A stretch of DNA of 64,000 nt from Takakia lepidozioides. Its lineage: Eukaryota; Plantae; Bryophyta. Where the stretch lies: contig CM060733.1 of NCBI GenBank assembly GCA_030704615.1, positions 17,918,001 to 17,982,000 of the forward strand, given 5' to 3'. The notes below the pieces were generated by a model. It was not told the origin of the DNA. It did no database searches and saw only the letters and a program-made list of their open reading frames with translations. This document shows, one piece after another, positions 16,046 to 51,232 of this stretch. The number at the start of each line of letters is the position of its first letter. The stretch's first letter is position 1. A program made the position numbers and the translations under genes.

Positions 16046-16282
16046 TACTAAGCCAGTTGAGTAGGTGAATGACTACCTGCCCCAGCAGTGACTCCCAAAT
16101 CTTACCAATTGATTAAGCCTTGTAAGGAACCAACTGTGGTGAAAATCCAAAATGCTTGTCGGTTTTAGAAAGTGAAATGCACTGCTAATTGAACAAAAAT
16201 GCTGGACCTGCTTTGGGAGGCAAGCTCGCAATACAGCCTCGCAAGGATGTGATCAACTCTCTGCCGCAAGAGTGAACATTAC

Positions 16283-21900: not shown

Positions 21901-24060
21901 GAAAAAATACACAAGAGGGCTACGGCCTGGTGGTAAGCCACTCGTGGATTGGCCTTTAGGTCTCAGGTTCAAATGTTCAACCCCTATCATCTATCTCTCT
22001 GCCTTCAGGCTGCCCCTGTAATATACTAAGTTTATAACTATTGTTTAGCCAAATGTACAACTAATTAATTTCCTATTTACTTGGACATTCTCAATGTTGT
22101 GCACCTAATCTCCCCAACCATTGTAAACGTATAGTTACTAGTAAGACATAACTAGGATCTGTCCATCTGCAATAATCTTAACTACCATCACCCTACCATC
22201 ACCAACCCCTATACCTATATTATCTAGAACCGCCTTTATGCCATCCCCATTTGCTCCGGATCCTGCTCCGGGTATAACACCCTTACAATCACAATGCCGG
22301 TTCTCTAGCCCGTTAGGAAGCCAGATGGCTTTAGCCGGTTCCCTTCCATAGCCGGTTCCTCCGGGGGCTGCACTTTCCAGGTATGCATATGTGCATAACC
22401 GGCAAATAACCGCCGGGTATGCATGTCCAGATGCCATACCCGGCCAACACTGGTTATGACACCCTGTGTCATAAAAGCAGGCATGTGGTCTACATATTTG
22501 ATACCATTGGCCATATCACAAAAGTCCTTGGACATAGTGGACCATAGTGCCTTGAAGAACTCCACCGGCATTCCATCTATCCCAGGTAATTTGTTGTTGT
22601 TCATAAGCTTAAGGGCAGCTTCGAGCTCTTTAATAGTGATCTCCTCCGTGAGCGGGATGGAATCAGCTGGTTTGAGCTTTTGAGGAAAATTGTCCAGACA
22701 CTGTGAAAGGTGGAACTGGTAAGAAAGGTCTTTGATGTCTTCTTGAAACAAAGTCTCGAAATGGGTAAAGGCTGCAGCTGTCATTTCTTTGGGGTTGGTC
22801 GTTTTGACACCATCAGAATTATACAGATCAGCTATGGTGTGAGTGGCTCGACGGAGTTTCATTTTTTGGAAAAAATATTTGGACATCTTTTCTCCCTTAG
22901 TTGACCAATTGATTCCTGCTTGCATCTTGATTTTGGATTACTGGAGGAGGTAATAGTTTTCAAGGTTAATGCGTGCTTCCAGGTAAGTCTGATAGGTATG
23001 GTTGTCACAGGACCTGGACTCCAATTTTTTCTGACAGACACTCAGGCATTTTTTACGAGCTTGAGCTTTTCTCTTCTGGGAGGCAGTGATCTATCTGCTG
23101 AGGTTTTGACTGATCTTGCTGGTAGCGGTCAGTTTGGCTTGAAATTTGAGGATGGGACAGACAAGGTGAAGCCCAGCAGAGGTCCACGCTTTCTTGATTG
23201 CCTCGAGGAAGAAGAGGATACGAAGGTGAGAGGAGTTAAGCTTATAGATGCCTCTTCCTCTCGAGTGGGAATTACGAAGCTTGAGTGTAGCAGAGATGAA
23301 AGCATGGTCAAAACCTTGGTGGATTGGTTCTTGGTGGTTTTGAAGTGCAAAGGGGGCCAAAGCGAGCAATATATAAAAACGACCGAGCCTGACCATACAA
23401 AGGTCGAGAACTGATCTATTATTTGTCCAAGTGAAGAATGGGCTTGTGGAGGAGGCATGGTGCGGGGGCCTATCTATTTCAATAAGGCTATGGTTTTGAG
23501 TGAGGTTTTGCTATGCCAAGTCCTCATCAGCTGAAAGGTGGTGGGAGTTTTGGGAACCCTGCACACACTATCCTTTTCTGTCTTCTAAGTTTTCCACCAT
23601 ATTGAAGTCCCCAGCCAAAACCCATTTGTGGATTGCTGGTTCTGCAGCCATCTTGTCATTGAGTTTGAACCAAAGAGCTGATCTGTCTGAGGCAGAGTTA
23701 GGTGCGTAGATGTTAATGAAGCCCGTGGGCTCGGAATCATTGGAGAAGAGCAGGGAGCAAAATTGAACTCTTCCTGGGTCCCAGATCTCATCCTTGAGAA
23801 TGAATTGTGTTAGGGAAGGGGATAGAAGGATAGCAGTGCCTCCTTTTGTGCCATCGCTAGAGGGTTTCCAAAGAGCTAGTGTCTTAGGCCAGATTTGATC
23901 TGTGAGGGTTTGAATTTTCTTGGCACAGAGCTTATGTGAAGAAAAACAATAGCTTGTGAGGATATAAGGGGTGTAAGCCAGATGGAGAGCTTTATTTTCT
24001 TATTAGCCATCCGGTTCGAGCCTAGACCCGTAATGTTCCAGGAAGAAGACTAACCTGCAT
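18945..24060 (-). pseudogene. LINE ORF2 (APE endonuclease, reverse transcriptase, zf-RVT)
   Basis: MQVSLL[S]WNITGL start; INIYAPN; AGDFNMV; YRPITLLNVAYK; LLDFEKAFDRVDW; SVRQGCPLAP; MFVDDT; ETLEHCLIYC. Frameshifts and stops present. Confidence 0.92.
21634..22452. mobile_element. Non-autonomous hAT element (MITE) inserted in LINE ORF2
   Basis: Perfect 16-bp TIR CAGTGTTGGCCGGGTA / TACCCGGCCAACACTG; 8-bp TSD gttattac / gttatgac; internal (A)CCGGT(T) repeats. Confidence 0.95.
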
Positions 24061-27001
24061 CTTGTGAGGGTAGCAGGGTGAGAGGAAGTGTCTCAAATGA
24101 TGGCCTGGATAGGATGTAGCGGAATCTGGTTCGTTTGTCAAGAGGGGGGAGGGAGGTGGCCCAGAAGTGATTCAGGGGGGCAGGCTTAACCGGTTTTCTA
24201 AGCTCTATTAATAAGACTGGGGTTCTATGCTCGTGAGGGAAAGGTTCACCAACTGAGTTAATGGGTAAGAATCGTAAACATTTGAGAGATCTTAAACGAA
24301 TAGAGGCTGGTCTAGAGGATAGCTGCATGAAGAAGTCTGAGAGGAGTATCTGTTTGAGTGAAGAAGGGATGTCTGATGGAAACGGTCCAGACCCCAAGTA
24401 AATTGAGAATTCATCGTGAGTGGGCTCAGAAAAGGAAATGGAAGGGAGGAGTTTCCAGTTTGCTGGGCAGGTAAATTGGGGCTGGAGACAAAGAATTCTG
24501 CATTTCCGAGGGCAATTCGCAACAGCATAGAAAATGATAAAAGGAATCGGGGGGGGGGCTAAGAATGAGGGACTTACAAGGATTGGTGAGGAGTGTGGGG
24601 TGCATTGTTTGGAGTAGGTGACAATAGCGGCATGTGGATTGGGAGATGGGAAGCCGCCGGACGGTGAAGAAACTGAACTGCCTGGGGGAGCATCTGAGGC
24701 ATCTGCTGCAGGTTCGGAGGAACTCGATGTTGAGATAGCTCCCATTGGATTGTAGTTGTAAAGCGGATTGAAGCCTTGCTTGGAAGCTTCTTCGATGCGT
24801 AGCCTCTCGATCTCCTCGTTTTGGACTAGCCCCTCAGTTTCCAAAATGGCGTGGAGAATGGTGAAAGCATTGTGGAGGGCGTCCTTTGTTCTGGAGAGAG
24901 CCTTGTTGGTTGTGCAGGGGTCATTAAAATGAGGCGGCTCCGCCCAGACTCCTGGCAGAGTGAACTCGCTGTTGAGAAGCAACTTTTCGTCCATTAGAGC
25001 TAGGATGTGCGTGGAGGGAGATAAGTCTTGGCTTAAACCAGGGAAAGCCTCTGGGTAGCCCCAAGTGATGATATCTTGAGAAGGAGGGGAATAAAACGGC
25101 AGGTTAGAGCTGAAGTAGTTTTGGATTTTGCCATAGAGGGTGGGAATTGGGTTGCTATCCATGGGAGTTTTGGACATGAAAGAATGGACATCGAGAAGTG
25201 TGATCCAGAGTGATTCCAGGTTCATTCCATCCCTTGATGTGATGAGAAATGCGGGTCTAGGTTTTCTCCTAAGAACCATGGGTGTGATACAGGTGGCATT
25301 GGGCTCTCCAGATGATGTGAGCTGCGAGCAGCCTCTAAGGGAGAGAGTGGGAAAAGAATGCAGTTTGCTACAAATAGCTGCAATAACAGGGTTGTGGGCA
25401 ATGGGAGATGCTCGCTGGATGGGAGTGAAAGCTGAGCCCGGCTGCTTGGACTTCCTGTTTTCAGAACTGGAGGCTACTGCTTTCCCTTTCATGTCTGCGG
25501 TGTCCGTCCTATTACTGCCTTCTCCCATATTTCCAGGTGCTTTGTTGACAGATCTGGAGGATGCTTCAAGAATCATTGGGTCCAGAATTTCCTTTCTTTA
25601 ATTTGCCAGAGGCGAGGAGGAGATTTGGACGCATGCGGAATCCTTGGCCTGGAAGACAACATCCCGATGGCTAGTAAGTAGGGGCAGTCCTTGTGGCTCG
25701 TGGCTATGATGGAAAATTGGAGGACTAGCCGCAGCGTTGCGGCTGAAGATCCCCTGCTGATGTGTGCCAGAAACTGGATCTGAACTGGGATGAAAGGATG
25801 CTTGCGCAGATCCCAGATTGGCATTGTTCCTTTTCCTTTTGGCCTTCGGGTAGTTGGCCTTTAGGTGACCAGATAGTCCACAATAATAACAAGCCGATGA
25901 TGATGTATCCTCGGACACCTTGATTGAATAAAAGTTCCCTTTGTTGTCTATTGGCAATTTGATGAAGTCTGGGAGCACTGAGTCATTTGGCATCATAACT
26001 GCAATCCTTGGAAATCCATTCTCATTGATTCTAGATGTAATGGTACTGCCTTTCCAAGCTGGGTAGTCTTTTAATGACTCCATATTGGAGCAGGGATTGA
26101 AGACACCAATGCACCCCAAGAATACTCCAAAGAAGTTACCAATGTTTGGCAAGTAAAAGAGATATTGATTTGGGATGTAGGGTAGGGAGATAATTCTTGG
26201 ATTCCAGATCTTGCCGTTACGGTTTCCCATAGCCTTTGACCATGGAAAGATGTTTACATTGAAACCATGCAAGTGCGGATTAAATGCCAAGGCTCGGTCT
26301 GCTGCCTCCTTAGAATCCAAAAAATCGAGAAGAAGCCTCTCCCTCTAGCCTGACAGAAGTGGTGGAGAAGATCCCCCGAACCCCCCATGGAGAGCTCACA
26401 CCCGAATGATGGTTTTTGCTCCAATCGAAGATCCGTTGCTCGAACGAAAGGCGCGGGGATTATTTAAAAGGAACCATATGGATATAATGTAACCAACTGC
26501 GATGAGAGGACTGGTAGGACTATCACACAAGTGCCTGATCACCCAATCCCTCACAAAGGCAGGACTCACTTTTTTGCCTGGAAAGTGAAGCAGAATGCCT
26601 TTGCTCTCAAAATCAGCCACAGTGCCATCAAGGTGAGAGACTTCAATATTATCTACCATGGGGTGATCTTTGTTCATAGCAGACTGAAGAGCAGCAATAT
26701 CCTCATTGAATCCTTCCATGATTTCAGTGTTGTGACTAGGGGGGGAAGAATTGCTGAGTTCCATTGCATCCGGAATCTCCGCACCTGCTGGGAGGATGGG
26801 CCCTGATGAGTCATTCACCGAGATGGGCACCAAAGGAAAAACTGAGGGGGATGGATCAAAGCGGGCCAGATTTTTGGAGTGGGCCTGATGTGCCATGAAA
26901 AAACCAGTGCTTGTTGATGGAATCAGCCTGGGGTCGCCAAGCCGAGAAGGATCTGACCTTGTGGAAGCTGCGACAAAAGTCTTGTTGAGAATTGGGCCCA
27001 T
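24050..27001 (-). pseudogene. LINE ORF1 (~980 aa; RRM/DUF4283-like region, CCHC knuckle, long C-terminal extension)
   Basis: ORFs 26396..27001, 25598..26320 and 24050..25576; the last two are in frame across one TAA. Knuckle CYYCGLSGHLKANY. The ORF1 stop overlaps the ORF2 ATG region. Confidence 0.8.
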
Positions 27002-28169
27002 GATAAGGAAAGAAAAGGCGGGTGAGAAGGGGTTGGGGAGAATGACCTGCTCAGCCAGGGAAAATCAGTGATGGAGAAATAAAAAGGCAGCAGCTAGAGA
27101 ACTGCAGTCTAGAGCCCGTAGAGTGAAGCTATAGCGAACTCGGAGAATATTGGAGTTTGGAAAAAGAAGGAAAACGGAGCTGCAAGCTGTGAACCGCCGC
27201 CGAGAGCACGATGAGTGGGGCAGATGGGGAGCTTGGAGTTGGTTCACAGGCGAGGAAGGTGACGAGAAGCGCGGGCTTGGGGAAGAGGGATTTAACGCTG
27301 GAGACTGCTGCATGGCGGGTTGAGCCAGAGCTTGTCGACAGCCATAACTTTGACGTAAGTAGAGGCAAGGTGATTGGCTTGTGGATGGGTAATCAAGCGC
27401 CTCGAGGGAGGGGTCAGTTCTTGGCGGTTGCGCATTAAGAAGTTGATGGGAGACCTCAAGAGGTACAGAGCATCATATTCTCTAAAGGGATGAATATGGA
27501 TAGTTCGTTAGAGGTATGGGATCAGGCTGAGGCTTGGGATGTGATGTTCGGGAAGGGAGGTGTTGTTCCCCACAGTCGTTCCCTGTCCTACTCTTCGTTC
27601 CCTATGATCGTGACAGCTGTGTCAAGCTGTTAGAAAGATATAAAAATGAAAAACAATGAAATTACAGCGAAAAAAGAGGATGGAGGCGAAAGAAGAGCTC
27701 CGCGTTCTGCGGTGAGTGAGCAAGCTCCCCGAATGGCTCTCTATGGTGGATTGCCACCACACTCTATCGTTCTTCAAATCTCAAAGCCTTCACATCCTCG
27801 CGCCGCTGTCCTTGCGAATCAGCTCTGTATTATGAAGCTTAACTCAAAACAATCTAAATTTTAATGAACATTCCACTTCGTGCTAAGACTTATCATGAAA
27901 AGTGCCATCAACGAATTCGTATTTGTTAAAATGTGGACGTGGTGCTAAGGCAAGTGTGATTTGTAGTGTCACTCTTTGAAGTACAATGGCAAAAGGCTTG
28001 ATCTAAAAAACAAATAGTTCCTAAAAAATATCGAGCCTCTTCATTACAGTAACCTCCTATGAATGCCAAGCACCAAGGATGGGGGAGAATAATACCATCG
28101 TTGCATGATTTGAACCTAGACCCACCTGGTGACACTATGTGCACTATCCAAGTAGTTATTCTTTGTTCC

Positions 28170-29258
28170 TTCTTTTTTCTTTTTCTTTTTTTTTTGGTAA
28201 AAGGCTGATTGAAGGGCTAGGGAATTGTATTGAAATAAACGAGGAAAAAATAACCTCGGAGTACATACCATGACGATGAGAAAGGGAACACTGCCCCCTA
28301 ACCTATAAACGGGAAGAGTTGCAGGAAGCTAAGGACAAGAAGATTCCACAGCGAGGGCATGGGGCTCAAGGACTAGAAGCTAGCATTTTAGTGCTTAGAA
28401 GAAACGAAAGAAAGATGGGCCTTAGATTTGCCCTCCTAAGAGAGCGCTTGTGGCGCCAATTAACATCAGATTCCTCAGGCTCTTCTGACTGTATAGCACT
28501 ACGAGAACTACCAACATGGCGAGAAGCGGGTGTTCCAGATTATCGTTGATTTTGTTGATCTTGAGCACAACTGCCCTCATTTTCCCCAGGTGTTCACAAA
28601 GCTAGAGAGTAGTTGCAATTGCCTTCCTTGTGCACATCTAGGAATAGCTGCACACAACACACGCCACGCTTTTTGAGCTTCAGATTCAAGTCTGAGTGAA
28701 CTCTATACATCACCAATCTGGCACACGGTTGGACCCCAGAGAAAACAAAAAAACACCGATACTTCCAGATATTACAGTGAGTGTGTGCTCTGAGGGTAGC
28801 TCACACTGGGCAAGTACTCCAAATAATCCCCTCGTCAAGATTAAGAACCAAAATAGAGTATTGAAAGGAGAAATCAGGACGCCAAGCTGTATAGAACTTG
28901 CGAACTTGTTGCCAGACAAAAGAGGCAAGGGGACACTCGAGAAGACAATGCTCAATAGATTCATTACAGCCCAAGCTGCACAATGAACAAAACTGAGGAG
29001 AATCAGAGATATATCTTTCCAGACAACAGACCAGTTAGCAGGCAAGGTAGGCACATGCGCCCATTTTAAATTCCACTTGGCATTGAAAATAACAGGCAGT
29101 CCAAAGAGAGTGTAATTCAGCTTAACCGAATATGCAAAGAATGGCCTGTATAAGGAGACATCCAAGCCCATTCTGCCAGGTCGGATTGAAGGAGCTGCAG
29201 AGGAGCAGAAAGGAATCAGGTAAAATAATCATCATAATGAAGGATGTTGGCTGGCGGG
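28170..29258 (-). mobile_element. 3' part of an L1/Tx1-like LINE (zf-RVT, 3' UTR, poly-A), left of the Gypsy element
   Basis: CSLCSLGCNESIEHCLLECP; T-run at ~28172-28195 (poly-A on the minus strand); 29011-29258 is repeated at 41616-41860. Confidence 0.85.
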
Positions 29259-32200
29259 TTAAATAGGTGTCAGGTGTCAAGTTAAATAAACACAGTGTGA
29301 AACTAACTAGAATAAATCTAGTTATTTGTATTTAACACTTGGAATTAGTTCAAGTGTTAAGTCAGGTGTCAAGTTTAGCTTGACACCTGAACCATCTCAT
29401 CAGGAGCTCGTCAGTCGTGCGGCTCATCTCTCTCGAGTTGAGCCTGCATGACCGAGCTCCCTCGCTGCTTAGCATCTGAGAGTACTTATGGAGGGAGAGT
29501 AGGATGTTGTGAGGTGGAGTCCCCATAGCTTGGGGTGCCCCTGGCTCGACTCTTATTTTAACGAGTGATTGTATTGTATTTCGTGTTTTTGTGACAGTGT
29601 GAGTTTAGTTTTCATTTCACTCGAGAGAGATGAGCTTGCATCGTTAGTGCGAGATGTGAGTTTTTAGTTTTGCATTGTTTTTGTTTCAAAGCTTGTTTTG
29701 AGAGCTGGTGAAGTAGAGAATTATGTAATCCATATATATGTAGAATAGAAGATAGTGGCTATGAGAATAGAAAGGACCGCGCTGCTTTGTACAGGGTTGT
29801 TGGAAGAGGCGCCCAACACTGAAGGCTGAGCCGATTCAATCCTCACCATGGGGGCCGGTCCAAGTACTAGCGGCGCCATCTGAAATCACTGAGTGGAGCA
29901 TAAGTAGAAGCATGTATTGGGGCTAGTGAGGTCACCGAGAATGGTAGAGCAGGCGGTGACGGTGCACGCAGAACTGCTACAGTTACGGGGAAGCGTTGTA
30001 TGAGAGTTACGGTCTGAAAAGACGAAAGGTGGCACTGTTGTTGGCCATTGGACATGTAAGCTCTCTTTTACTAGCAACCTCGTGTATGTTGAATGCGGCA
30101 ATATCTGGAACTGAAGGCGGAAGCTCATGGTCACCTTCAGTTAGCCGTGTTTGTCTTGAATCTACTGCAGGATATTATGGGGCTAATCAGTATGGACAGG
30201 GCCTGTAACAACTTGGTGATGATAAGGCTAGCGAATGGGGGTTTCATACTCAGCTCGATCCAAGTTTGGCTGCTGATGGTAGACAGCTTTCATAAGGTTT
30301 GATTTTGTGATTGATCAAACGACGAGGCATTCCCGTATCGTCGAGGGCAGTCCGTGATCCAAGACAGGAGCTCAGTTTCTTCCATTGGTGCTGGGGTTAA
30401 GCATTTATTAGGATTTCGGAGTTTCAAGAAGGACTGGTCGAATTTGGGTAGCCAGCACATATGTGGGCTGAGGTGGCCGGAACTGCTTTGTTGATTCTTT
30501 TCTATGCGATGGCGCATGAAATTAGTAGGCCAACCGACCTCAGTACCGCAGAGAATTGAATTCTCGTTGGAAGACGGAAGTCTGGTTTAAGCAGAGACCT
30601 CGATCTCGGCTCGGCTGGCCTTGATCGCATGGATCGCTCCACGCTCTATGACGGTGGTAGTTCTTTGGATCCACGGACGTCTCAATAATGGCTTCTGATC
30701 TATGATTTTTGGGATTTAGTTCAAGGTTTTTGCCTGCTGGCCATGAAGCTGATTAATTGCTTTGGTAGAGGCAGCCTGGCAGGTAATGCAAAAGTGCAAC
30801 CAGCAGCCACCTAGGCTGTCCAGTCGTGGCTAGGCACTTTTGACATAGCAGAGCAGGCCGCGGCAAAGGTCTATGATTCGGCTGCACATGCCCTGCAGTG
30901 AGGTAAGACCAAGACCAACTTCTTCGTGTGACGATCTGAACAATAGTCATAGTTGTACCATCAGGTCTTGGAGCAGCCCCGAGAATATATACCGTTCTGC
31001 CCAACAGATTTCCATGCTAGGAATTTCTACTGATCGGAATCTTTACTGATGGTTCACATCTTCAAAAATAAAAGTGCCTGAATCGTAGTAGGGCCCCTCC
31101 CTTGCTGGAGCGACACAAGTGATATCCTCAGCAGGGCTCATGCACAAGCGGCTGGCACTCACACTCGTCAATGCTTCCCTACTCGGTTCCTCTACACATG
31201 TAAGATCGTGGACTGAAACATTGAGGTCAAGTCGGCTTAGCCAAGAGGGAACCTGGAGACAAGGATTGGAGGAAAATTAGCGTGGCTGCCACCCCAATGA
31301 CCCTTAGCAGGTGTTGGGGCACTGTCGGATGTTGTACTGCCTGCATGGGATATGCCACTTTCTCACGAAAGACTTGCAGAGTTGCCCTTCAGGTTGTGAT
31401 TATCAGGAATTGGTAGTGGCTGGCGTGGACAACACCGTGAGGTGGAAACCGAATAGCAAAGGCAAGTTGCTCTGACTTATTTCCATACTGTACAGTTGCA
31501 CAACAAAATTCCCAAGCCTGCAATTCATGTTTCATCTGCACCCATGCCAGTGACGGCGACAGTTTGGACATTGATATTCACAACGTAGCTGATCTAGAAG
31601 GCACAGAGAACTCAGGAACCTGCGGGGAACGGAGGGCATAAGGATGTGGATAATATCACTGATATAAACTATTCCATGGATCCTGTCCCCAACAGCTCCG
31701 CAATTGAACTCTGTGGCTATGTCGACCTCGAGGAAAAGAGGTTATTTGAAAACATTGGCTCTGATCAGGGTTGTGAACTGGGATAGAATTCTTGAAGTCA
31801 ATCGTTGGCCTTCAGTATTATACAATTTGTGAGCAGTGGCCCGACCTGCCTTAATGTCTCCATTGTTAGTGTGGCTTTGGTTTTCGATAGTTGTTGATCC
31901 CACAAAACCGTTAGTTAAAGGAGAAAGGAAAATCAAATCAGATCAGGCCTATTGTCGATTAAATGGACAAATAGTATGTTTATGGGATTAGATAAACTTT
32001 GGTTGGTCATATCTTTGTCAAAAGAGCTCCGTTTGACGTAGTTTTTGGGGGGTTACCTACAGATTGTGGAAATCTACATATTCAGACATATTTAGTTTTT
32101 TGGACTCTGCTAAAAATCTATGGAATTTTTTGAGTGTGAGTGTGCTATGAAAGATCCACAATTTTGTTTCTAGAACCTGTTGTGGTCTACATGAGAGACA

Positions 32201-33655
32201 AGTTTGTGGATGTCCTCCTTGTATGGCTGGGGGCAATGAGGACGTAAATGAAGGGCAAGTCTCTTCTCTTAGCCTGTGCACACAAGGAGACAAGATTTAT
32301 GTTTCTCAAGGAACTCAGAGTGATTTGAGTGGAGAACAGTTGGACGAGTTGATAGCATACTGGGAGTCAGGCATTAGCAATAGACAACAAACTGCTGTAG
32401 TTGGCGTTGAGGGCCTCAATATTGCTTTGGACAGTCAGAACTCTGTTGGAGCAAGCGTTCTACAGCTGTAGGTAAAATACCAAAGTGGATGGAAGCTAGG
32501 CTTGGAACACAGCCAAAGACAGCCCCGGGGACCAAGGTGTTCAGCCACAAGGCCGTGGTGTACTGGAGCAAAGGAGCAGGAGCTGCACAAGTTTTTGCAA
32601 TCAGACGTGGTTGCAGTCGGACACGCACTGCACGAGGCAACCACGAACGAGGGTTCATTAGCAACGAACAGTTTGTTCTGCTTGAAGGAGATGCAGTCAT
32701 TCGCAACGAGGACACCCGCAATTGTCTCAAAGCTTTTGAGTTGAGAGACTGTCAGACCCTACCTTTATTTTCTTTAGTATTCAGTGAGCGGGAGATAGGG
32801 GAGTATTGTTTTGTCTCTACCTGGCAGAGAGAGGAGGAGGGTTGGTTAGAGCGAGCTACTGTAGCTTGGGATAAGGTTAGTGGCAGGTTTCTGGATATAG
32901 ATATACCTCCCACACCTTACCATCATGCAAAGCGAGGCACTTTGAGAGAAGTCTGGCAGTTGATAGCATACATTAGAATTAGATCTTGGTTGGTCGGACC
33001 TATTCTTCCCCTCCCTCTCTTTACTATTTCATTACTTTGTACTTGTAGTTGCCAAAGCCTCTCTTGGTGGAGGCCAGTCAGTCCGGGGTTTTTGGGCTGG
33101 GGTATTCTGCAGGAGCAGCATTGCGGAGGGATTTTGATGTGGGGGTGTTGATGTTTTGGTTTCTTGTGTTTGGATCCCCCCCACACCTGCATGCTTGACT
33201 GTGCGCCATATTGGTTTTGTGTGGGCGCTTGCTTTCATAGGGATTAGGCTGGATTTGATCACCGGTCAATCCTAGAGTATGCTGTCGGTGGTGAGGCTGG
33301 AGTGATGACCAGCAAGACCACTAGTGTTTCTTCTATGGTGAGGCTGGGTTGATGACCAGCCAACCATAGGAGTTCTTGCGGTGGATGCAGGTGCAGATGC
33401 CTTTAGCCACTGGGATATGACCCTTAATCCGCAACAGGTGCTCACCCGTGTCACTATTAGAATTAGTACTAGAGCCTTATAGTGTCAGGTGGGGGAGGTG
33501 CGGGTTGTGAGTGTCATCACGGAGTTACCCAAGGGTTTTGAAGGGAGTACGGTGAGAGTGGGTTCACAAGACGAGGTGTTCGGTTCAGACCACCTTCACC
33601 TCCATCCTCAACTAGTGCAGAGTCTGACACAGACTCGGAGGCTTCATCAACAGGT

Positions 33656-34900
33656 GTGCAATTTCCTTCGCCATTGTTGTGGGACGACATGGAGGAGATG
33701 TATGGAGCTACCAAAGGGCCTCGTAGGTACTCTGGAGCTGTGGGCACAATCGAGTTGGATGACTTTATCCAGGAGTTCGACAGCTGGTGTGATTTGCAGC
33801 AGATGCGTAATCCACAGCTGTTCACACCATTCACGGCGTGGAAGGGACTGTTCCAACATTTGGAAGGCCCGCCTATGGACGGTTACCACGAGTTCAGGCG
33901 AGGACATGAAGCAGAGATTGAGGAGTGGAGGCTGTATTGGTCACCTGACTACGTTTCCATTACTCGAGGCACGACGCGACCAGTAGCTGCATCAGCACCA
34001 ATATCTCCCACTGCCAGCACTAATAGTGGAACAAGTAGTGCCGGTACTTCTGCAGGTGGTACCAGTTCAAAAAGTGCTACTACTCCTCATGCCACAACTA
34101 CAACACATGTGCCTAGATTCAACCCGGTGGTGGAGTTCTTCCAGGAGTTGCGGAGGAACTACCAAGGCGTACGGACAGAGAAGCTGCGAAGTTTGCAAGA
34201 CTTCCAGCGCAAATCCAGTGAGAGCTTGCGAGAGGCCTACACTCGTATGAGGCGCTTGATAAATATGACCCAAGGGGTTACTGAAGCTCAGGCAATCCAG
34301 TTCTGGTATGGAATTTTGGACAAGGAGCTCAGGAGAAGGGTGCAGGATACAACCCTGTTACAAGCGGCCCAACCCACATTAGTAGATGTGTTTCTGCTGG
34401 CTGAGCGGATTGAGCTCAACATGGTGGAGGAGCGAGTTGTTACCATTGGATTTGGTAAGGACATGCCTGCACGAGGCGCAGCTGCCAGCCAACAGGTACA
34501 AGGGACTACCCAATAGCGTGGTCAAGGGGGCAAGGTTGCCCAACCCAAATTCCATGGAGCTTACAGGGGGCCTCAGGTGCAGAGGCCAGTAGCTTCTTTT
34601 GCAGGCCAACAGCAACCAGGGGTGGTATGTTGGACATGTGGAGGACCCCATGTCAAGAAAGATTGCCCAGAAAGTGGCAAAGGGCCGGCACAAGCACAAC
34701 CTGCACAGTTGCAGTGTAGACATTATGGCAAGTATGGGCATGGAGATGTCCAGTGTTATGACTTGCACCCTGAGTTGCGGCGAGGCCAGTTCCAAGGGAA
34801 CAATGGTGGTCGAGGGCGAGGTGGAGCACCTCAGAAAGGACAAGGTGCAGGACGAGAGCAAATAGTATGGCCAAGGACGTGGAGGTCAGGGCGTTGACCA
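33656..34900 (+). pseudogene. Gypsy gag (capsid-like region and two zinc knuckles)
   Basis: ORFs 33656..34516 and 34577..34897 are in frame across a TAG. Motifs: RYSG...ELDDFIQEFDSW; FQRKSSESLREAYTRMRRL; knuckles CWTCGGPHVKKDC and CRH(Y)GKYGHGDVQC. Confidence 0.85.
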
Positions 34901-35599
34901 AGGCATGACCGACCGGCTTCAGCAGCTAGAGCAAAGGCTTGCTGTCATGGCCACAACTCAGGTGGTACCAGCTCCAAGACCTGAGGGTCCACCTCATGTT
35001 CCTCCTCAGCAACGTCATCCTGACGGAGGAGACATGGGAGGCATGGGATTTATATGTGGGGCAGCACTACCATTAGTGCAGGTGGAATCTGCTGCAGCCG
35101 TCACTCGAAGAGCAGCACGAGTTCCTGAGCCACGAGGTGCAGAGGTGGAGTTGGATCCACAGCGTGGGGAGGCAAGCCGTCAGGCGAGGTTGCCTCAATC
35201 ATTCATCTTGGCGGAGACAGTGTCGACGACATCCATGGCACCTAATTCTCGCCCCACGGATACCAAGGCAGAGGTTATTGTGCCATTGGGAAGAGCTACA
35301 CGTGCAACACTGATACCTGCTGCCAAGGCTAGTGCAGCTAGTGGGTTGTTGGGGGCGGCCACCTCTGTGTGTCAGGCCCCACTGTTCTCGGCAACCATGA
35401 TTGCGACGCCGGGGGTAAGACCAGCTGCAGTGTTCAGACTAGCAGCAACACTCTGTGAGAGTGGGGAGGTCACTTCATCTTCTGAAGAGTTAGTGGAAGG
35501 TGTAGTGGCAGAGGGGTCCTCGGATTTGAGGGTCAAGACTGCCACGACTGCACCATGGCTGCAGCTGCCAGGTTGACGGAGCTGCCAGCTAGGCTAGTC

Positions 35600-36030
35600 T
35601 TTGAGCGCGCCATGGTGACATCTGGAGTTGTCTTGTTAGACAACCAGGATGACATTTTCTCTTTGAGTGGACCGGCAAGCAAGAGGTACCATCCACTGCG
35701 GGTCTTGTTGGACTCGGGAGCTCAGCCATTGATGTTGGGCAGAGCCGCTATTGCAGGTTTGGGCCTCATGGAGGCGGATATTGAGCCCTGTCTCTTCCAG
35801 ATACAGACATCTCTGGGAGGATCAGAGCAGGCTCGGGGCATGACACGGTGTGAGTTGGCCATTAGACTACAGCCAAATCATCCTATAGATGGCTCAGTGA
35901 TGCAAGCCAAGGCCATTGTGACAGACGCGGTCTCTTACGATGTCATCGTTGGTGGGGCAGTATTGTATCCCATGGGCTTCACCCTGGATTTTTGGGAGGA
36001 GTCAGCATCCTACAGGCCTGGATTGTAGTC
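35600..36030 (+). pseudogene. Retroviral-type aspartic protease
   Basis: RVLLDSGAQPLML active site; YDVIVGG. Confidence 0.85.
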
Positions 36031-36419
36031 AGGGGATGGTCGTCGTATATAGCTCCATGTGACATTCATTGGGGGTGTTGTTGCTGCCCAGCGGGGCAAG
36101 ATGCCAACACTAGCAGCCTTCAAAGCTGCAGTTAGTTGGCCTAGAGAGTTGTTGGAGAGCAATGCCCATGCAGAGGATGTGCCACCTCCAGCAGAGCAGG
36201 ATGACATGCATGGTACGGCGGAGTTGCCTGCCATGGTTGCTCGCACTCCATTCTGGGATACGAGCAAGGATTTGCAGCAGGCTGCTGAAAGACGTGTGCA
36301 ACAAGCCTGGGTAGAGGCCTTTGTACCGTCAAGAGAGGAGGAGAGTGTGGTGATTGCACCAGAACCACCTCAGTTGTCACCATTGGACACCACACCTCTT
36401 GTGTGGCAGTGCCCGGATG

Positions 36420-37400
36420 AAGGCATATGCCTTCTGGACTTGTTTGGCGGGATCAGCACTGGATTGGCTGCAGTGCTACAGGCAGGTATACAAGTTCAAC
36501 GTTACCTGTATGTAGAGAGGGATGAAGACTACACGACGCGTCTCACTGCGCCATGTTGCTCAATTGGTGCAGCAGTACCCTGATTTGCTGCCAGTGTCTG
36601 CAGTTCGTGGATACCAGCAAGCCTTGCCATCAGACATCTCTTTGCTGAGGGCGCAGGATTTGGAGCGGCTTGGCCCTATTCACTTGGTAGTGGCAGGTTG
36701 GCTCTGCCAAGGGCATTCATCAGCCGGGCATGGCAATGGGTTACAAGACTCAAGGTCACGCCTGTTTTGGGAGATGCTGAGGGTCCTACGCTATTTACAG
36801 CTTCAGCAGACAGACTCTCCGGCATATATCTTTGAGAATGTGCCATTGATAGGTGATTCTTGAGCCAAGGTGATGGCCAGTGTACATCAAATGCGGTCTT
36901 GGCTTGGGTCAGCAGTGTTGCTGGATGCAGCTACAGTGGGGTCACGAGCTCATTGCCCACGACTATGGTGGATCAACTTGATGCCACCTGCATTGCTCAA
37001 GCGTGCATTTGATGGGATGTAACGGCCACCAAACCTGACGATGGATAGCATTTTGGACATAAGGGAGGCAGTCTTAACGTGTGAGACACGATGACCGATC
37101 ACCTTTGGCAGTGGTCAATAAGGTGGGTTACCCACGAGCAACATTGCCTACACTGCTCAGCTTTCCAGCATCTCATGCTTTCTGGGATGGTGGACCTGGC
37201 CTCTTGTGGGATAGCCAGTTGCAGCAGTTAGTGGAACCCAATGCTGACGAGCGCGAGCGGGCGATGGGTTTTACCACTGGTACCACGACGGTGCCATCTC
37301 TTTCTGAGGCATCACGTCGTCAAGTATTGGGGCAAGCAATGGATCTCAATTGCTTGACCTGGATTATCAGCTTGGCTATGGCTGAGCAGCGCAGAGTACG
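36420..37400 (+). pseudogene. C5 DNA cytosine methyltransferase domain (DNMT3-like) within the Gypsy polyprotein
   Basis: Motifs in canonical order: I LLDLFGGISTG (36431); II YVERD; III SDI; IV VAGW(L)CQGHS (GWLCQ at 36696-36710); VI YIFENVP (FENV at 36831); VIII AH(C)PRLWWIN (36951); IX EPNADERERAMGF; X RRQVLGQAMD. Two frameshifts and two stops. Confidence 0.92.
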
Positions 37401-37768
37401 AAGTACATTTCCCTTGATAGTCTCTCTGCCTACCGAGACGGTACAGGCTGGGAGCAAACAGGTGAGGCACACGTGGGAGGTGCTCGAGGTTCAGAGGGAG
37501 TTGGCAGCCAAGGCAGCGGTGATGGATGAGGTTGGGGATTTTTCTCGGGTTGAGGAGGTCCTCAAGGATGAGATGGTGGGGCAGGATGAGACATTGTCAC
37601 TGACAAAGCAGGCAGTGGTCACTGCTCAAGAGGTTGCAGCATAGCAACCACGGGACGCGTCTTCTACCTCTAAGCCTGTTGGACTCAAGGTTGCAGTCAC
37701 GGAGGACAACTGGGAGCCTGATGTTGGACCCATAGTAACCGGAGGAGGGACGACGTATACGGCGGTTC

Positions 37769-39150
37769 TTGAGGGCTTACATGAACTGCTTTGCCTTCAG
37801 TTTGAAGGACTTGGGAGCACTGAAGGGTCAAGAGATTCGCATTAAATTGGCCACTGACATGCCAATCTTTTGGAGACCCTATAGATATAGTGACATGGAG
37901 AGGTCCTTGTTTCAGATGAGGACTCAGGATCTTTGGGAGGCTGGTTTGGTGGAGCTATCTGGTGGAGAGTATGCTTCAGCCACAGTGATATCAGCCAAGA
38001 AGGATGTCTATGGCAATTGGACGGAGAGACGTATGTGCGGTGATTATCGGCCTGTAAATCGTCAGACCAAGTCCGATAGGTATGTCATGCCGACACCAGA
38101 GGAGATCTTTGATGCCATTGGACATGTCAAGGTCTTTAGCACTTTGGATTTACGATCCGGATATCACTAGTTGCCGATCAAGAAGGCGGATAAGCAGAAG
38201 ACGACATTTTGGGGGATCAATGAGCACGGGAAGGACTGCCTATACCAGTGGCGGTTCTTACCATTTGGGCTTAAGAACGCTCCTGCAGAGTTTCAGAGAG
38301 TCATGGACAGGATTCTAGCAGGGGTGGTGTTTGCTCGGTGCTATATAGATGACATCATCATCTTTAGTGCTACGGTGGAGGAGCATGAGAGACACCTTCA
38401 AGTGGTATTTGAGCGCTTGAGGGCGCACGGATTGAAGTTACATCCGGGGAAGTGCAAGTTTTTCCACAACCAAATTGAGTATCTGGGTCACATGATATAT
38501 CCTGGAGGATTGGGGATACAACAGACTAAGGTAGAGGCCATTGCACAGATTCCACGCCCCATGGATGTGAGCCGAGTTCGAGCTTTCATGGGGTTGGCAA
38601 ACTATTATTGACGGTTTGTCAAGGGATTTAGTGCCATTGCAAAAGCTCTAGCCAAGCTGACCAAGGTGGACCAGGAGTAGCAGTGGGAAGATGAACAAGA
38701 ACAAGCTTTTCAAGAGCTCAAGGTGAGGTTGACCTCGGCGCCCATTTTGAGATGACCTATCAGGGGGCGTCCTTTTCAGCTGCATACAGATTGGAGCATG
38801 CTGGGGCTTGGAGCGGTGCTCACACAGGTGGATGATGAGGGAAGAGAGTTTGTAGTGGCTTATGCTAGCCGCTCGAACAACGTTGCAGAGGCTAAGTATA
38901 GCTCATATGAGGGAGAGTGCTTGGCTACAGTGTGGGCCGTGGCACATTTCAGGTGCAATCTATACGGCAATCTCTTTACCCTTGTCACGGATCACTAGCC
39001 ACTCAAGTGGTTGATGGAGTTAGACAAGCTTACGGGGAAACTTGCACGATGGGCACTCATACTTCAAGAGTATGACTTTTAGGTTGTGCATCAACCGGGT
39101 TTGGTCAATCGGGATGCGGATGGGTTGAGTCGCAATCCATGCACGAGCCA
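37769..39150 (+). pseudogene. Gypsy reverse transcriptase and RNase H
   Basis: RT: RMCGDYRPVN, LDLRSGYH, LPFGLKNAP, YIDDII. RNase H: LHTDWS..GLGAVL, YSSYEGECLA, VTDH, DADGLSR. Confidence 0.97.
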
Positions 39151-39479
39151 GCATGATGACATTGGAGCTCGGTGGCATGGCGAGACGGACGAGGAGATGG
39201 TGCCCGGATGGCATGCATCTGCATTTCTATGTATCTTGGCAGCGGAAGGCCAGGTTGGACCTACAATAGGGATGACTGTAGACCGAGTGTCTGAGGACCC
39301 TGAGGCCAGCAATGAGCAAGGTGACACCAAAGATATACATGAGGATTCAGCTGTGTCGGACTATCTCCGCACTGGAGACACGGCAGCCACTGTGACTGCC
39401 AAGGAGAGGGATCGGATCCTACAACGAGCCAAAAGGTTCAAGTGGGAGGGGACACACCTGCTCCGAGTGTGGGAGGATG

Positions 39480-40580
39480 GTCGAGTGAGGATTGTACCTC
39501 ACCCAACACAACGGGCACGGTTAGTGCGGCATGCCCATGAGGAGTTGGGGTATTTTGGGGTGCGACGCACTCATAGTCTACTGCAGGGGCAGTATTGGTG
39601 GCATGGTATGCACACAGAGGTGCAACAATTTGTGGCTAGGTGCATGGTGTGTGACAGGGTGCGTGCTTCATTCAACGCTCCTACACCACAATTGCACCCT
39701 CTTCCGATTATGGGATTGGGCTACAGGTGGAGTCTTGACTTCGCAGGGCCGTTGCCACTGACCATGCGCCACAACAAGTACGTGTTGGTGATGGTGGAGC
39801 ACTTCTTCAAGTGGATCGAGTTGGTTCCATTGCCTGATAAGGCTAGTGAGGGAGCTGCGTATGCATTTTTGGATCGTGTACTTAACCGATTCGGTGCTCC
39901 AGCTGAGGTACTCACGGATCAAGGGAGAGAGTTCTTGGGGGAGTTTCAGGCGTTGTGTGACAAGGCCTTGATAGACCACTGCACCACTTCTCGAGATCAT
40001 CCTGAGGCCGATGGCTTGGCAGAGACAGTTGTGCAAACGGTTAAGAGAGGATTGCGCAAGTATGGTTTGCAGAAGGGGCACCTAGGAGATTAGGACCTTC
40101 AGCTACCTTGGTTGGCCATGGGCTACAGGTTTAGCAAGCAAGCATCACTTGCCTCGTTCTCACCTTATTTCCTTCTCTTTGGCCGAGAGCCAGACTTGCC
40201 TACATCTATTCGTAGGGAGGCTGCAATAGTCCTCAATCTTGACGATCCAGACGTGTGGGCACGTGCATGTGGTCAACGCGCGGAGTTGTTTAAGAAAGTC
40301 ATGCCCATGGCTTTCGAGAATCTTGGCATTGCACAACATCGTGATACGTTGAGGTATGCTACCATACGTGGTGGGGGCTATCGTCCTGGGGTTTGGAGAT
40401 TTCACCCTGGTGACTATGTTTATCTGTAGCAAACTGCTCCAACGACCCTGGATGTGACTGCAGGACGTGTTATTTTGAGGATTCGAGAGGTATTGCCCTC
40501 AGGCGTCTTGATCTTGGAGGGTCGGGATGGCATGACTTGGAAGGACCATGTGCGTAATTGAGCGCCATGTCACCTTCCGA
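39480..40580 (+). pseudogene. Gypsy integrase
   Basis: HHCC region HAHEELG(Y)FG...CMVC; DDE core WSLDFAGP, LTDQGREF, ADGLAE. Confidence 0.95.
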
Positions 40581-40633
40581 ATGTCGATGGCAGGATTGAC
40601 CCAAACCTGGCAGTGGTACTTGCAAGTTTGAGG

Positions 40634-40778
40634 TGTATGTTGTGTGGGTCTGCTAGAGGGGCAGCCACCATGCTGGTGTGTGATCAATGCTCTAGAGGTT
40701 GGCATAATGGGATGCTTGACTCCACCTCTTGAGATGGTTCCTAATGGGGATTGGTTATATCTGCATTGCATTGGATAG
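40634..40778 (+). pseudogene. PHD finger at the integrase C-terminus
   Basis: CMLCGSARGAATMLVCDQCSRGWH[frameshift]MGCLTPPLEMVPNGDWL(Y)LHC matches the C4-H-C3 PHD pattern with the conserved P-x-G-x-W; one Cys is TGT>TAT. Confidence 0.85.
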
Positions 40779-42528
40779 TGGGAGTGGATACAACCATGGA
40801 ATGCTAACAAGAAATGCAAGGCCAAGTTACTAGGAAACCAACACACGAGATCCTGGCTCAAGTTCACAGATTGCAAGACGGCGACTAACGATGGGGCTGC
40901 TCTTGTACCCGGCCACTTGTCTATAGAGTTTGAGTACAATAGGGACAGTGATAGAGGACTTAGTACGGCTGTGGCTATTACATCTTGTAGCTATCTGGAG
41001 TTAGAGGGACCTAACCACCAGCTAGGGGGGCGATTGTGGCAGACTACTTTATTGTGCATATATGTGTGGTGTGGTTTGGACAACGATGTAGCTGTGTAGC
41101 GATACGTATGCGCACGACAGCTGTCAAGTTAAATAAACACAGTGTGAAACTAACTAGAATAAATCTAGTTATTTGTATTTAACACTTGGAATTAGTTCAA
41201 GTGTTAAGTCAAGTGTCAAGTTTAGCTTGACACCTGAACCATCTTATCTTCACGAGCTCGTCAGTTGTGCGGCTCATCTCTCTCGAGTTGAGCCTGCACG
41301 ACCGAGCTGCCTCGTTGCTTAGCATCTGAGAGTACTTATGGAGGGAGAGTAGGATGTTGTGGGGTGGAGTCCCTATAGCTTGGGGTGCCCCTGGCTCGAC
41401 TCTTATTTTAACGAGTGATTGTATTGTATTTCGTGTTTTTGTGTCAACAGACAGTGTGAGTTTAGTTTTCATTTCATTGTGGCAGACTACTTTATTGTGC
41501 ATATATGTGTGGTGTGGTTTGGACAACGATGTAGTTGTGTAGCGATACGTATGCGCATGACAACAAACTTCCAAAGGAATCCAGAGATCTTAGCTGCTCT
41601 ATTCTTCCGCCACACATCTTTCCAGACAACAGACCAGTTAGCAGGCAAGATAGGCACATGCGCCCATTTTAAATTCCACTTGGCATTGAAAACAACAGGC
41701 AGTCCAAAGAGAGTGTAACTCAGCTTAACCGAATACGCAAAGAATAGCTTGTATAAGGAGACATCCAAGCCATTCTGCCAGGTCGGATTGAAGGAGCTGC
41801 AGAGAAGTAGAAAGAAATCAGGTAAAATAATCATCATAATGAAGGATGTTGGCTGGCGGGATGGGGCTACACTAACCAATGTTCCTGCAGAAAACACGAA
41901 TAGCATACAGGCTAGTCTCATAAGCAGAAGAAAAACAGGGCCTGAGGAGAGTACCATCCAAAGACACATTGAACTTCCACCCAATAAAGGAATTCGAGGA
42001 ACGAGAGATGGCATAGAAGGCAAATGGAACGGAGCCCGAACCCGATGACTCCAGATCAGAACCTCCCATCCAAACCGAGAGAGAACGCAGGGCAGCAGGG
42101 AAGGAGCAGATGTTAGACCAGCGAGATGGGATCTGATTTCACAGTAAGTTGCCAGGCAGTGGCTCTTCTTGATGAGAGAGAAGCGGAAACAAGATCGCAG
42201 GGCAGAAAGGTTCCAAAGTCCTATATATGATAGAAGTGCGAGACCACGGCCTGCTCCCAGTTGGCCCATCTCTTAGAGCAAGTCAGAAGATCCCCAGAGT
42301 CCACATTGTAATTCCCAAATCAGGGTTGCTGCCCAGTTGCTGAAGGACCTCCTCCACTGTCGAAGGTGTGGATTGGAAAAGCAAAGGTCGCATACGAAGC
42401 CAGGCAGTCAAAATTGACTGCCAAATTTTGGAACCCAAAGGCTTAGCTCTGGAGGTTCTGGCACCCTACACGATCCATCTTAGAGACTGAGGCCAGACAC
42501 CAGACGAAGGGGTGGCATCAAGCACGTG

Positions 42529-43455
42529 CACTACAGGAAAAAGGGAGGGTTGCGACGCCTACCCCCCGTGGCCCCTCTCCCATGCGACGCCCTGGGTGTC
42601 GCAACAATACTCCAAAATCCACTTTTATGTGGATTTTGGCCAAGTCCTTGATTGCGACGCCTGAGGCGTCGCTGGACAATTTTTTATTTATTTTTAAATA
42701 TCGCAGCCCAGCTGCGACATCCTAGGCGTCGCATCACAAAAAAAAAAAAAAAAAAAAAAAAAAACTTCGCATTTTTAATGCGACGCCCTGGGTGTCACAA
42801 AAATGTCGCATCAAGCACCCCAGGAGGGAAATTAAAAAATTAAAAAATTAATTATTATTTTAAAAAAAATCGCATTTTAATGCGACGCCTTGGATCAAGT
42901 CATTTTTTAGCAACGCCTAGGGCGTCGCATTTGAGTTTTTTTTTGTTCATAAGTCATTTGTAGCGACGCCTCATTTCTAGCGTCGCTACAAATGACTTGA
43001 TCATTTTTTGGTTTCTAGAGTAGAGGGTGCAGGAAAAGCGACGTCTCTGGCGTCACTTACATTTGAGCGACGCGAGGAGTGTCGCTTTGAGGTCGCGACG
43101 AGCAACGCTCGCATCAACTACCTTATGTATAATTAAAGCATGAGTTTGTGTGTAAGTTTGGTAAGTGATATGTTGGTTAGTATGAAGTGTTTTACTATGT
43201 GTATAATCTAGAGGTTTTGAGTTCAAATTTGTCTAGCAATATGTTGAATAATCAATATGTGTCGTATGTTGAAGGGTTAGGTTTCACACTACATGGCTAA
43301 TGTGTGTCTCGCCATTTTTTGAACCATGCACAATCCCGTTTTTTTTTTAAACCATGTGGATCCCGCCATTTTTTAAAATTCAAAATTCAAAAAAACCGCA
43401 AATGCGACGCCCGGGGCATCGCTCCCAAACAGCAACCCCTAGGGCGTCGCATTTT

Positions 43456-43488
<33 letters not shown>

Positions 43489-43670
43489 GGTGCCTGTATG
43501 ACCATTATGCAACGTCCGGAGCGTCACATTAAGTCTTACATTCTGCGACGTCACCATAGCGATGCATCAGGCGTCGCAGATTTGCGATTTCCGCGGAGCC
43601 GGAAAATCGCCATTAGTGACGCCAGGGGCGTCACTAGAGCGTCGTTAACCCCCCCCCAAATGGTGTAGTG
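42529..43670. mobile_element. Non-autonomous CACTA element
   Basis: Termini CACTACA...TGTAGTG, perfect 3-bp TSD gtg/gtg, subterminal GCGACGCC/GGCGTCGC repeats at both ends. Confidence 0.95.
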
Positions 43671-45238
43671 GTGATTCCTAACCAAAACTTCAAGTGACGA
43701 GAGATTAGTTAGCATTCTAGGGATCTACTTAGCAAGAAGGAAGATAACATGCGCTAGAGGGTCAATAATACCTAACCCCCCATCCTTCTTCTTTTGAGTG
43801 ATCTGTTCCCAACTGACTAAGGCTCTCCTGGAGGGGGAGGCTGGGGTAGCCCCCCAGATAAAGTTCCTAACTAGGGACTTTATTTGATTGATAATCGAGG
43901 AGCCCGCGGACCACACTGAGGTTGTAAACCAAATAGAGGCCAATAGAACTAGATTAGCGACAAGAGTTCTTTCCACTCCAATAGCTTAGCTTCCTTTTGA
44001 GTTTGAGGATGATAGCCTCATAATGAAGTTGATCTAAAATCCCATGGCCAATCATATGACTCAAAATATTATGAGCTTGCCCATCTTGGAGCCATCGGAG
44101 CCCCAGATCTTGACCCCACGGAGCAGAGTGAGAAGCGGAGGCCAGAGATTTGATCTTCAAGAGGATTGCAACTGTTCTTTCCAAATAAACCTCAAGTCCA
44201 GAGGCAGAATAGAACAAATTGAGAGCTTGAAGAGCAGCAGCTACGTTGCAAGATGAGGAGTTACCAATAAGAAACACAGTGTCATCTGCGTACATAAAAG
44301 CCTTAATGCTGGAGGGGGAGGGCAACGAACGGGGGATTTTCAAACCTTGAATAGTCGAGTTAGATTGAAGCAAGTGACCAAGAGCATTAGCTGCCAAAAG
44401 GAAGAGAAAAGGTGCCAAATTGGGCTTGCTAGAGGCCGAAGAAATGAGGATTTTGACCCAAGAAAGGAAAAAAACGAGCCAAACCCAATTTAGCTATGAC
44501 ACCCAAAAGGAAAGCATTCTCAAAATCCAACATAAGTAAGGCAAGGGGTTGATCCGTCTCGTAAGCGTGATGCAAGGCCTCAATGGAAAGGAGATGTTAT
44601 CAAGCTGAATCAACATAATTTTTATGAACCCTGTCTAATCAGGACGAACAAGCTTGCGGAGAAGAGGTTGAAGCCTCATCGCCAGAGATTTAGCTATGAT
44701 CTTATAAGTGGAAGAAGAGTAATAGGCCTATAATTGGTGATGAGATCTCGATCACCTTTTTTGAAGATAAGCACAATAACACCTTGGGACACCTGATAGG
44801 GCATAATTCCTTTAGCCGTGACATCATTAGCCATATGCAGAAAATCCTCCCCAACATGCTCCCATAACGATTTAATAAAACTCATCAGGAAGCCCATCCA
44901 GACCCGGGGATTTAAGGGAGGCGAGAGCCTCAGTGGCTTCCATCAATTCCAAGGCAGTGAAAGGAGCATAAAGAGACTAGCAATCTTCTTTGGAAAGAAT
45001 ACTGGGAGAGAATCCAGTACAGGAGACATATTGGATGACGAATTAGCAGAGATAGACGGAGGGGAAAAAATATCCGAAAAGTAGGAAGCGGCGAGGGAGG
45101 CCAACAATTTTGGATTAGTTTGGGGAACATTTATCCGGTCCAGCAGGGAACAGATGGATGTATCTGCTCGTCGTTGTTTCGCCTTATGGAAAAAGTAAGT
45201 AGTCATCTTTTCGCCTTGTAATTAGGACCAATTCACAC

Positions 45239-51200: not shown

Positions 51201-51232
51201 CCTACTAACCCTAAGGCCATCTTGTCTTACTT

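Follow-up and report, generated by a model that had tools for sequence, protein, structure and literature searches.

The window analysed here is a stretch of 64,000 nucleotides from the bryophyte Takakia lepidozioides (GCA_030704615.1, contig CM060733.1, positions 17,918,001 to 17,982,000), and at 29275-41562, on its forward strand, it holds what is, judged from its sequence, a decayed 12.3-kb Ty3/Gypsy element encoding its own DNMT3-like methyltransferase. The copy is dead, with 14 premature stops and about six frameshifts, but the pieces at 33542-40760 can still be read in series as gag, protease, C5 methyltransferase, reverse transcriptase (RT), RNase H, integrase and a PHD-like finger, and the Pfam matches give the protease-RT-RNase H-integrase order that is typical of Ty3/Gypsy. 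The ends are another matter. Instead of an ordinary pair of identical long terminal repeats (LTRs) with a tRNA primer site, the element has split direct repeats in the layout A1-body-B1-A2-B2, and a TGG-type primer site after A1 was not found by eye, no tRNA comparison having been made.

The methyltransferase domain (36422-37390, forward strand) has the motifs of a cytosine methyltransferase in canonical order, with LDLFGG at 36434, YVERD at 36509, GWLCQ at 36696, ENV at 36834, RAHCPRLWWIN at 36945, RERAMGF at 37252 and GQAMD at 37330, between the LLDSGA of the protease at 35705 and the YIDD of the RT at 38342. It is damaged in the window by two stops, two frameshifts and altered residues in motifs IV and VIII, and its middle piece, translated with an X in place of each of its two stops, matched PF00145 (E 4e-8; score 33.5 bits, cut-off 22). 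The pieces are colinear with uninterrupted database proteins, and an intron is unnecessary. For one such uninterrupted relative (P0003) the best match among solved structures was human DNMT3A (E 6e-12, residues 47-231), whereas DRM gave E values of 1e-8 to 2e-4 over the shorter span 44-170. A fold search with the relative's predicted structure had DNMT3 chains alone among the top matches listed (E 6e-10), although the model is of mediocre quality (predicted local distance difference test score, pLDDT, 53.5). With the canonical motif order, and a better and longer match to DNMT3A, a DRM identity was rejected; on motifs and matches the enzyme is DNMT3-like and non-permuted. The domain consists of the catalytic core alone, lacking the DUF3444 that host DNMT3 of plants carries, and DUF3444 was not found in the element proteins P0050 and P0037, which represent the first open reading frame (ORF1). 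Capture of a host DNMT3 mRNA was likewise rejected. The original prediction, made from the letters of the sequence, had named these motifs and their order, the lack of introns and the affinity to DNMT3 rather than DRM, all of which stand, and the profile search it proposed returned PF00145, PF00078 and PF00665.

The remaining coding domains, all on the forward strand, are in a similar state of decay. A broken Gag of the Retrotrans_gag-like type with its linker lies at 33542-35600 (PF03732, E 7e-4; 64-73% identity to relatives; CCHC knuckle at 34628-34666), followed at 35600-36025 by the aspartic protease, with LLDSGA at 35705-35722, for which the Pfam match is weak (PF13650, E 0.042) and which was also placed by alignment at 49-53% identity to relatives. 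RT and RNase H, also broken, occupy 37739-39140 (PF00078, E 3e-25; PF17917, E 6e-24). The integrase at 39500-40430 has an H2C2 zinc finger (PF17921, E 5e-15) and a DDE core (PF00665, E 2.5e-12) with D at 39737, D at 39917 and E at 40022, which is a D-35-E spacing. At the end of the second reading frame (ORF2) there is a PHD-like finger (40634-40760), frameshifted in this copy (PF00628, E 4.6e-4, and E 3e-10 in the relative P0084). No Phage_integrase match, the sign of a tyrosine recombinase, was obtained in 15 and 4 further element frames.

The element belongs to a large family. A protein search with 931 candidates yielded 23 relatives with 52-72% identity; organism names are attached to 15 of these, 12 belonging to Marchantia polymorpha and 3 to Calypogeia fissa. 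In a metagenome scan 197 of 334 candidate stretches were confirmed and 80 loci kept, although these come from nine assemblies and sometimes represent the same insertion more than once, so that they cannot be counted as independent. RT is reached in 24 of the 28 loci longer than 9 kb, with the DNMT ahead of it in all 24; one of the others is without RT-RNase H and three end early. Viral contigs gave a single weak match among 36 candidate stretches (39%, E 7e-6). In X1, a run of the window's own organism, the summed contig depth, which is no copy count, is 45-68 in the right flank and 1.1e5-4.3e5 in the element body from 32236, and two bins in the DNMT, at 1.4e5 and 2.7e5, are as deep as gag. 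This depth marks a highly repeated family that retains the DNMT domain. A nested or one-off insertion of the DNMT was rejected, since the DNMT stands before RT in all 24 of these loci and the domain is covered as deeply as gag; the domain is integral to the element, as had been claimed.

The lesions are moreover private to this copy, because 96-100% of the X1 depth differs from it at the motif IV and VIII changes and at both internal stops. The catalytic Pro-Cys is kept in 63 of the 64 loci with a readable motif (81 loci in all) and in 44 of 45 proteins (of 83), where the exception is the window copy itself. Compared with four relatives (L009, L021, L059 and L033), the synonymous sites of the DNMT are saturated (proportion of synonymous differences, pS, 0.73-0.75), but the protein is 67-68% identical (nonsynonymous divergence, dN, about 0.21-0.26), which is above the protease (51-53%) and below the RT (70-78%) in the same comparisons; identity to two distant relatives is 51-52%. 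Even among relatives at only 33-45% identity the S-adenosylmethionine (SAM)-binding, Pro-Cys, ENV and RxR motifs are kept. On these figures the DNMT is under long purifying selection.

Behind the DNMT there is a conserved in-frame stop, TAG CAA CCA at 37642-37650 on the forward strand, which ends ORF1 in a context of the readthrough type. Of 51 junctions, the window's included, 46 show a TAG or TAA stop with CAA and then two pyrimidines behind it, across four diverged subfamilies; five are without this context, two of them (L063 and L064) at an apparent nested insertion. These contexts were read from the metagenome loci and the window, Marchantia and Calypogeia being known from proteins alone, and the uninterrupted ORF1 proteins of 1280-1332 amino acids run from Gag through knuckles and protease to the DNMT and end just past it. 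With this stop the DNMT closes a Gag-protease-DNMT frame and is not part of Pol. The original prediction placed the DNMT between protease and RT but did not notice the stop, which changes the likely mechanism. The sequence TAG CAA CCA is found in the window and in L021, and TAA CAA TCA in L075, and all three fit UAG CAR YYA, the type I readthrough signal of tobamoviruses (PMC3542737). In L021 the frame is open for 766 codons past the stop, through RT and RNase H and into the integrase; in the window a small indel relative to sister copies shifts the stretch after the stop out of frame. An ATG two codons past the stop occurs in one subfamily only. Gag-pol separated by a stop is called rare in LTR elements (PMC3441728), and where readthrough gag-pol has its stop after Gag, the stop is here after protease and DNMT. 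We infer from these contexts that ORF2 would be made by readthrough, and the DNMT therefore produced with every Gag.

Repeat A1 (29275-29619) forms the left end of the element and has TG...CA termini; aligned with A2 (41122-41476) it shows 336 matches, 9 mismatches and 10 gap positions, i.e. 9 differences per 345 aligned bases. Repeat B1 (41035-41119), also TG...CA, and B2 (41478-41562), the right end, are identical at 83 of 85 positions, with 2 differences per 85. Just before B1 a purine-rich tract (41020-41034), near-identical in relatives whose B repeats differ, may serve as a polypurine tract. B1 and A2 meet in a palindrome, GACA-GC-TGTC (41116-41125), made of both element ends and a 2-base spacer; all of these lie on the forward strand. 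The 3' triple B1-A2-B2 was present in 10 loci representing seven distinct insertions, and the whole A1...B1-A2-B2 arrangement in L059, L074 and L075/L076 besides the window. Perfect 4-bp target duplications flank five of seven distinct complete insertions, and the other two match at three of four bases, which fits a DDE integrase with D-35-E spacing. The GACA-GC-TGTC junction is common to the window, L009, L033 and L059, and all the intact junctions encountered have the 2-base spacer. Integrases trim two bases from DNA ends. A DIRS identity was rejected, given the DDE integrase, the target duplications in relatives and the lack of a tyrosine recombinase. For PAT-like, Ngaro and DIRS-1 elements both termini are believed to be rebuilt from a copy of the joined ends inside the element, which has been shown to be essential in the case of the DIRS-1 internal complementary region (ICR) (PMC7192593). 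By analogy with this region, and with the trimming of two bases by integrases, the B1/A2 junction would template both cDNA ends.

A profile search gave 352 representatives at E <= 1e-30, from which the best 150 and 10 long ones were classed by architecture. Among these 160 proteins RT/RNase H precedes the DNMT in 68, the DNMT is followed by integrase in 15 and stands alone in 61, gag/protease leads to a terminal DNMT in 12, and the DNMT is followed by RT in 4. The long polyproteins (P0084-P0093) all have the order RT-RNase H-DNMT-integrase (10 of 10); they are open frames of 2.4-3.6 thousand amino acids, some with long extra C-terminal tails. A species is given for a single one of them, the chlorophyte Hariotina reticulata, which falls outside the streptophytes that the literature names. 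Both architectures pair the DNMT with a PHD finger. Ten other proteins were looked up and three of them are from Closterium, of the protease-DNMT type, and two Closterium models run from DNMT into RT without a stop; such continuity is confined to more distant relatives (P0139, P0279, P0186 and P0281).

A FastTree phylogeny of the DNMT, rooted at the midpoint (48 rows, 25 of 81 RNase H-type rows kept), parts the two architectures with a support of 0.986 and groups the window with Marchantia and Calypogeia at 0.999, so that the land-plant relatives that had been sought do exist and the window nests with them. In the tree of RT-RNase H, built from 37 rows with 21 of 47 kept, the same three groups appear, but with one distant outgroup and a support of 0.52 it has no reliable root and does not give the direction of the DNMT's move. 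Copies from Klebsormidium nitens and host DNMT3 were left out of both trees, and no K. nitens sequence occurred among the name-bearing matches. Inheritance from before the land plants would be the simplest reading, with horizontal transfer as the alternative; the suggestion that the lineage may predate terrestrialisation is in this way supported by inference, the Closterium relatives having the same domain order. The split repeats with target duplications, the conserved stop and the second DNMT architecture all go beyond what had been predicted.

The 5' part of the element (forward strand throughout) is heterogeneous. A low-copy insert at 29620-31900 has an X1 depth of 169-422 over 29901-31768, against more than 1e5 in the body. 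By eye it contains a motif like an AP2/ERF exon near 30820-30900 and a zinc-knuckle-like scrap, neither with a Pfam match, and parts of it are matched by X5 and X7 contigs with a strand switch at 31002/31248; the scraps were probably picked up from the host by a small subfamily. A 246-codon open frame (32411-33151), in the part of the 5' region with high copy number, may be non-coding, as it had no Pfam match and no tblastn match in 29 long loci. In one X1 contig the beginning of repeat A is linked to body sequence (joint 33431/29294), which suggests one copy inserted into another.

The element interrupts a long interspersed nuclear element (LINE) on the reverse strand, with its 3' part at 28511-29258 and its 5' part at 41563-45221. 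A 246-base LINE piece is present on both sides of the element (29013-29258 duplicates 41616-41860, 96%), and the left junction has a short filler and a deletion (29013-29274 against 41563-41860). No target duplication of the window copy itself was found, its left flank being rearranged; from this and the flank repeat the left junction was probably rearranged after insertion. Further upstream, on the reverse strand, lie an intron-containing COMT-like gene at 12723-14087 (PF00891 and PF08100; Atlas clusters mostly Streptophyta; best named match Sphagnum, 50%) and the last exons of a dehydroquinate (DHQ)-shikimate dehydrogenase gene at 16286-16681, one exon being closest to the chloroplast bifunctional enzyme (E 1e-15). 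Another LINE (18945-27470) lies upstream of these exons. Together with the place of the window in the DNMT tree, these genes by themselves would mark the host as very likely a land plant, probably a non-flowering one. The window has, in addition, arrays of units of about 50 bases at 2143-3582, 7258-8124 and 42550-43490, with GC-rich hairpin-like cores and A/T runs, that resemble subterminal repeats of DNA transposons, and by eye hAT-like transposase pieces at 5084-6207. A 1-kb repeat is present in two copies (15019-16046 and 62371-63327, 82% identical) and an inverted repeat in copies of about 86% (8351-8992 and 51227-51771), the latter followed at 51761 by a gag-like frame that runs into LINE sequence.

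What would a retrotransposon do with such an enzyme? By analogy with what has been proposed for algal elements, we lean, with some reserve, towards an enzyme that enters the particle together with Gag, is cut loose by the protease and there methylates freshly made cDNA. In active copies each Gag molecule would bring a methyltransferase with it into the particle, and synthesis of RT, RNase H, integrase and PHD finger would depend entirely on occasional readthrough of the stop. The protease would free the DNMT, which would methylate the cDNA, and the new copy would land pre-marked in a host that methylates its transposons. The B1/A2 junction would template both cDNA ends together with two extra bases, and the DDE integrase would trim these before inserting the linear DNA. 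The idea of cDNA methylation by the DNMT3s of DIRS and Gypsy elements is from de Mendoza et al. (PMC5890265), in whose hands SymbioDIRS-Dnmt3 enzymes methylated CG in yeast.

Several points weigh against this scheme. KnitGypsy-Dnmt3, the enzyme of the K. nitens element, gave no methylation in yeast, which its authors regarded as inconclusive (PMC5890265). We could not find a footprint of self-methylation in the CpG observed/expected ratio, 0.50 in the element and 0.39-0.48 in neighbouring LINEs. The commonest stop context, CAA CCC (39 of 51, in the main subfamily), is an imperfect CARYYA, and ORF2 may be reached by splicing or re-initiation instead of readthrough. Lastly, L012 and L034 end at B1 yet carry target duplications, which calls for either a subsequent B1 x B2 recombination or another route. 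CHG depletion gave no signal in the element either; among the at least 48 copy-private transitions listed, 8 are in CG, 15 in CHG and 25 in CHH, contexts that hold 13, 19 and 68% of the cytosines, which is a slight lean to CG and CHG.

The selection on the catalytic residues and the PHD finger beside the DNMT in both architectures would also suit an enzyme that acts in the nucleus, with the integration complex or in trans, on the target site, sister copies or competing elements, while the PHD finger reads chromatin, and a supply at Gag level would exceed the need of one cDNA. We nevertheless consider this unlikely, as the domain is a bare core without the host-type DUF3444, as in the second group the DNMT forms one protein with RNase H before it and integrase behind it, an arrangement in keeping with action in cis, and as the K. 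nitens methylome is not unusual in the account of PMC5890265. The silence of the K. nitens enzyme in yeast (PMC5890265), the missing CpG footprint and the location of the DNMT before the stop, together with the structural proteins, would all agree with a domain kept for a job other than DNA methylation, such as binding of cDNA or RNA, shielding of cytosines or methylation of RNA. That the SAM-binding, Pro-Cys, ENV and RxR motifs should then be conserved at 33-45% identity is hard to explain, however, and the nearest solved relatives are DNA enzymes, so we find such a role improbable.

It is far less probable still, and largely refuted, that the DNMT is a passenger or an artefact, by one-off capture, nested insertion or an algal or contaminant contig. 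The absent target duplication and the rearranged left flank of the window copy leave some room for it, but the DNMT stands before the RT in every one of the long loci that reach the RT, its protein sequence has been conserved despite saturated synonymous sites, X1 covers it as deeply as gag, the tree nests it with Marchantia and Calypogeia at 0.999, and the same contig carries the intron-containing plant-type COMT and DHQ-shikimate dehydrogenase genes. Taking methylation in the particle as the preferred reading, we tentatively picture a Gypsy lineage of great age in green plants, spanning chlorophytes, Closterium and liverworts, with an active DNMT3. The enzyme may in land plants have moved behind a leaky stop, so that particles would load the methyltransferase and deliver pre-methylated cDNA, with ends rebuilt from the palindromic junction in a DIRS-type replication joined to an integrase-type insertion. 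As a whole this picture is possible, though we would not call it likely.

The 2018 study left the role of retrotransposon DNMT3 undecided, and the question can be put to a direct test in Marchantia polymorpha, where the family occurs as ORF1 gene models without interruption and methylation mutants exist. The conserved stop predicts an enzyme at the levels of a capsid protein, and the combination of split repeats with target duplications suggests that RNA is converted into integrated DNA by a route not yet described. Search tools built on paired LTRs would presumably miss such elements, and unflagged copies can inflate the DNMT counts of bryophyte gene sets. The suggestion that these elements lacked a description from land plants holds for the open literature, in whose available parts the Gypsy-DNMT3 kind is confined to the 2018 K. 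nitens paper and to subsequent references to 'streptophytes'; land-plant copies may be named in subscription papers, in the main and supplementary figures of 2018 or in the preprint supplements. The 2018 survey lists 13 green species, none of them a liverwort (PMC5890265). A preprint (10.64898/2026.05.21.726589) names 'streptophytes (Gypsy-DNMT3)' as earlier work, with no land plant in the passages at hand. The main text of PMC6317226 is without 'methyltransferase', 'PHD' and 'Marchantia', and no relevant passage was found in 10.1101/363937, PMC8616336, PMC11982613, PMC10952607 or PMC13398078.

Among known systems, the host enzymes PpDNMT3a/b have the same non-permuted DNMT3-type catalytic domain, but with a C-terminal DUF3444 (PMC6453930) that P0050 and P0037 do not show. 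EpiLTRs and DAM-LTRs are likewise LTR elements with DNA methyltransferases and a chromatin reader, but their DNMT, a sister of DNMT4, is accompanied by a DAM and a chromodomain (10.64898/2026.05.21.726589). The internal copy of joined ends is shared with PAT-like, Ngaro and DIRS-1 elements, which differ in integrating by a tyrosine recombinase and in having an adenine-type methylase or hydrolase (PMC7192593). SymbioDIRS-Dnmt3 of Symbiodinium also has a DNMT3 in a retroelement with split direct repeats (PMC5890265), but it is a DIRS element with tyrosine recombinase, whereas we find a DDE integrase and, in the relatives, 4-bp duplications. The closest likeness is to KnitGypsy-Dnmt3 of K. nitens (PMC5890265), with its Gypsy domain set, its intronless, non-permuted DNMT3-like domain under purifying selection and its DIRS-like A-coding-B-A-B repeats, and this shared repeat layout supports the link to the algal element that had been proposed. 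The intronless DNMT3-like domain with conserved catalytic residues is found in the family and is damaged in the window copy. KnitGypsy-Dnmt3, however, is described as having its DNMT in one ORF with RT and RNase H, from which a conserved stop parts it here, and because this single-ORF feature is lacking we do not assign the window element to KnitGypsy-Dnmt3 proper. It differs also in its land-plant host, and in belonging to a highly repeated family.

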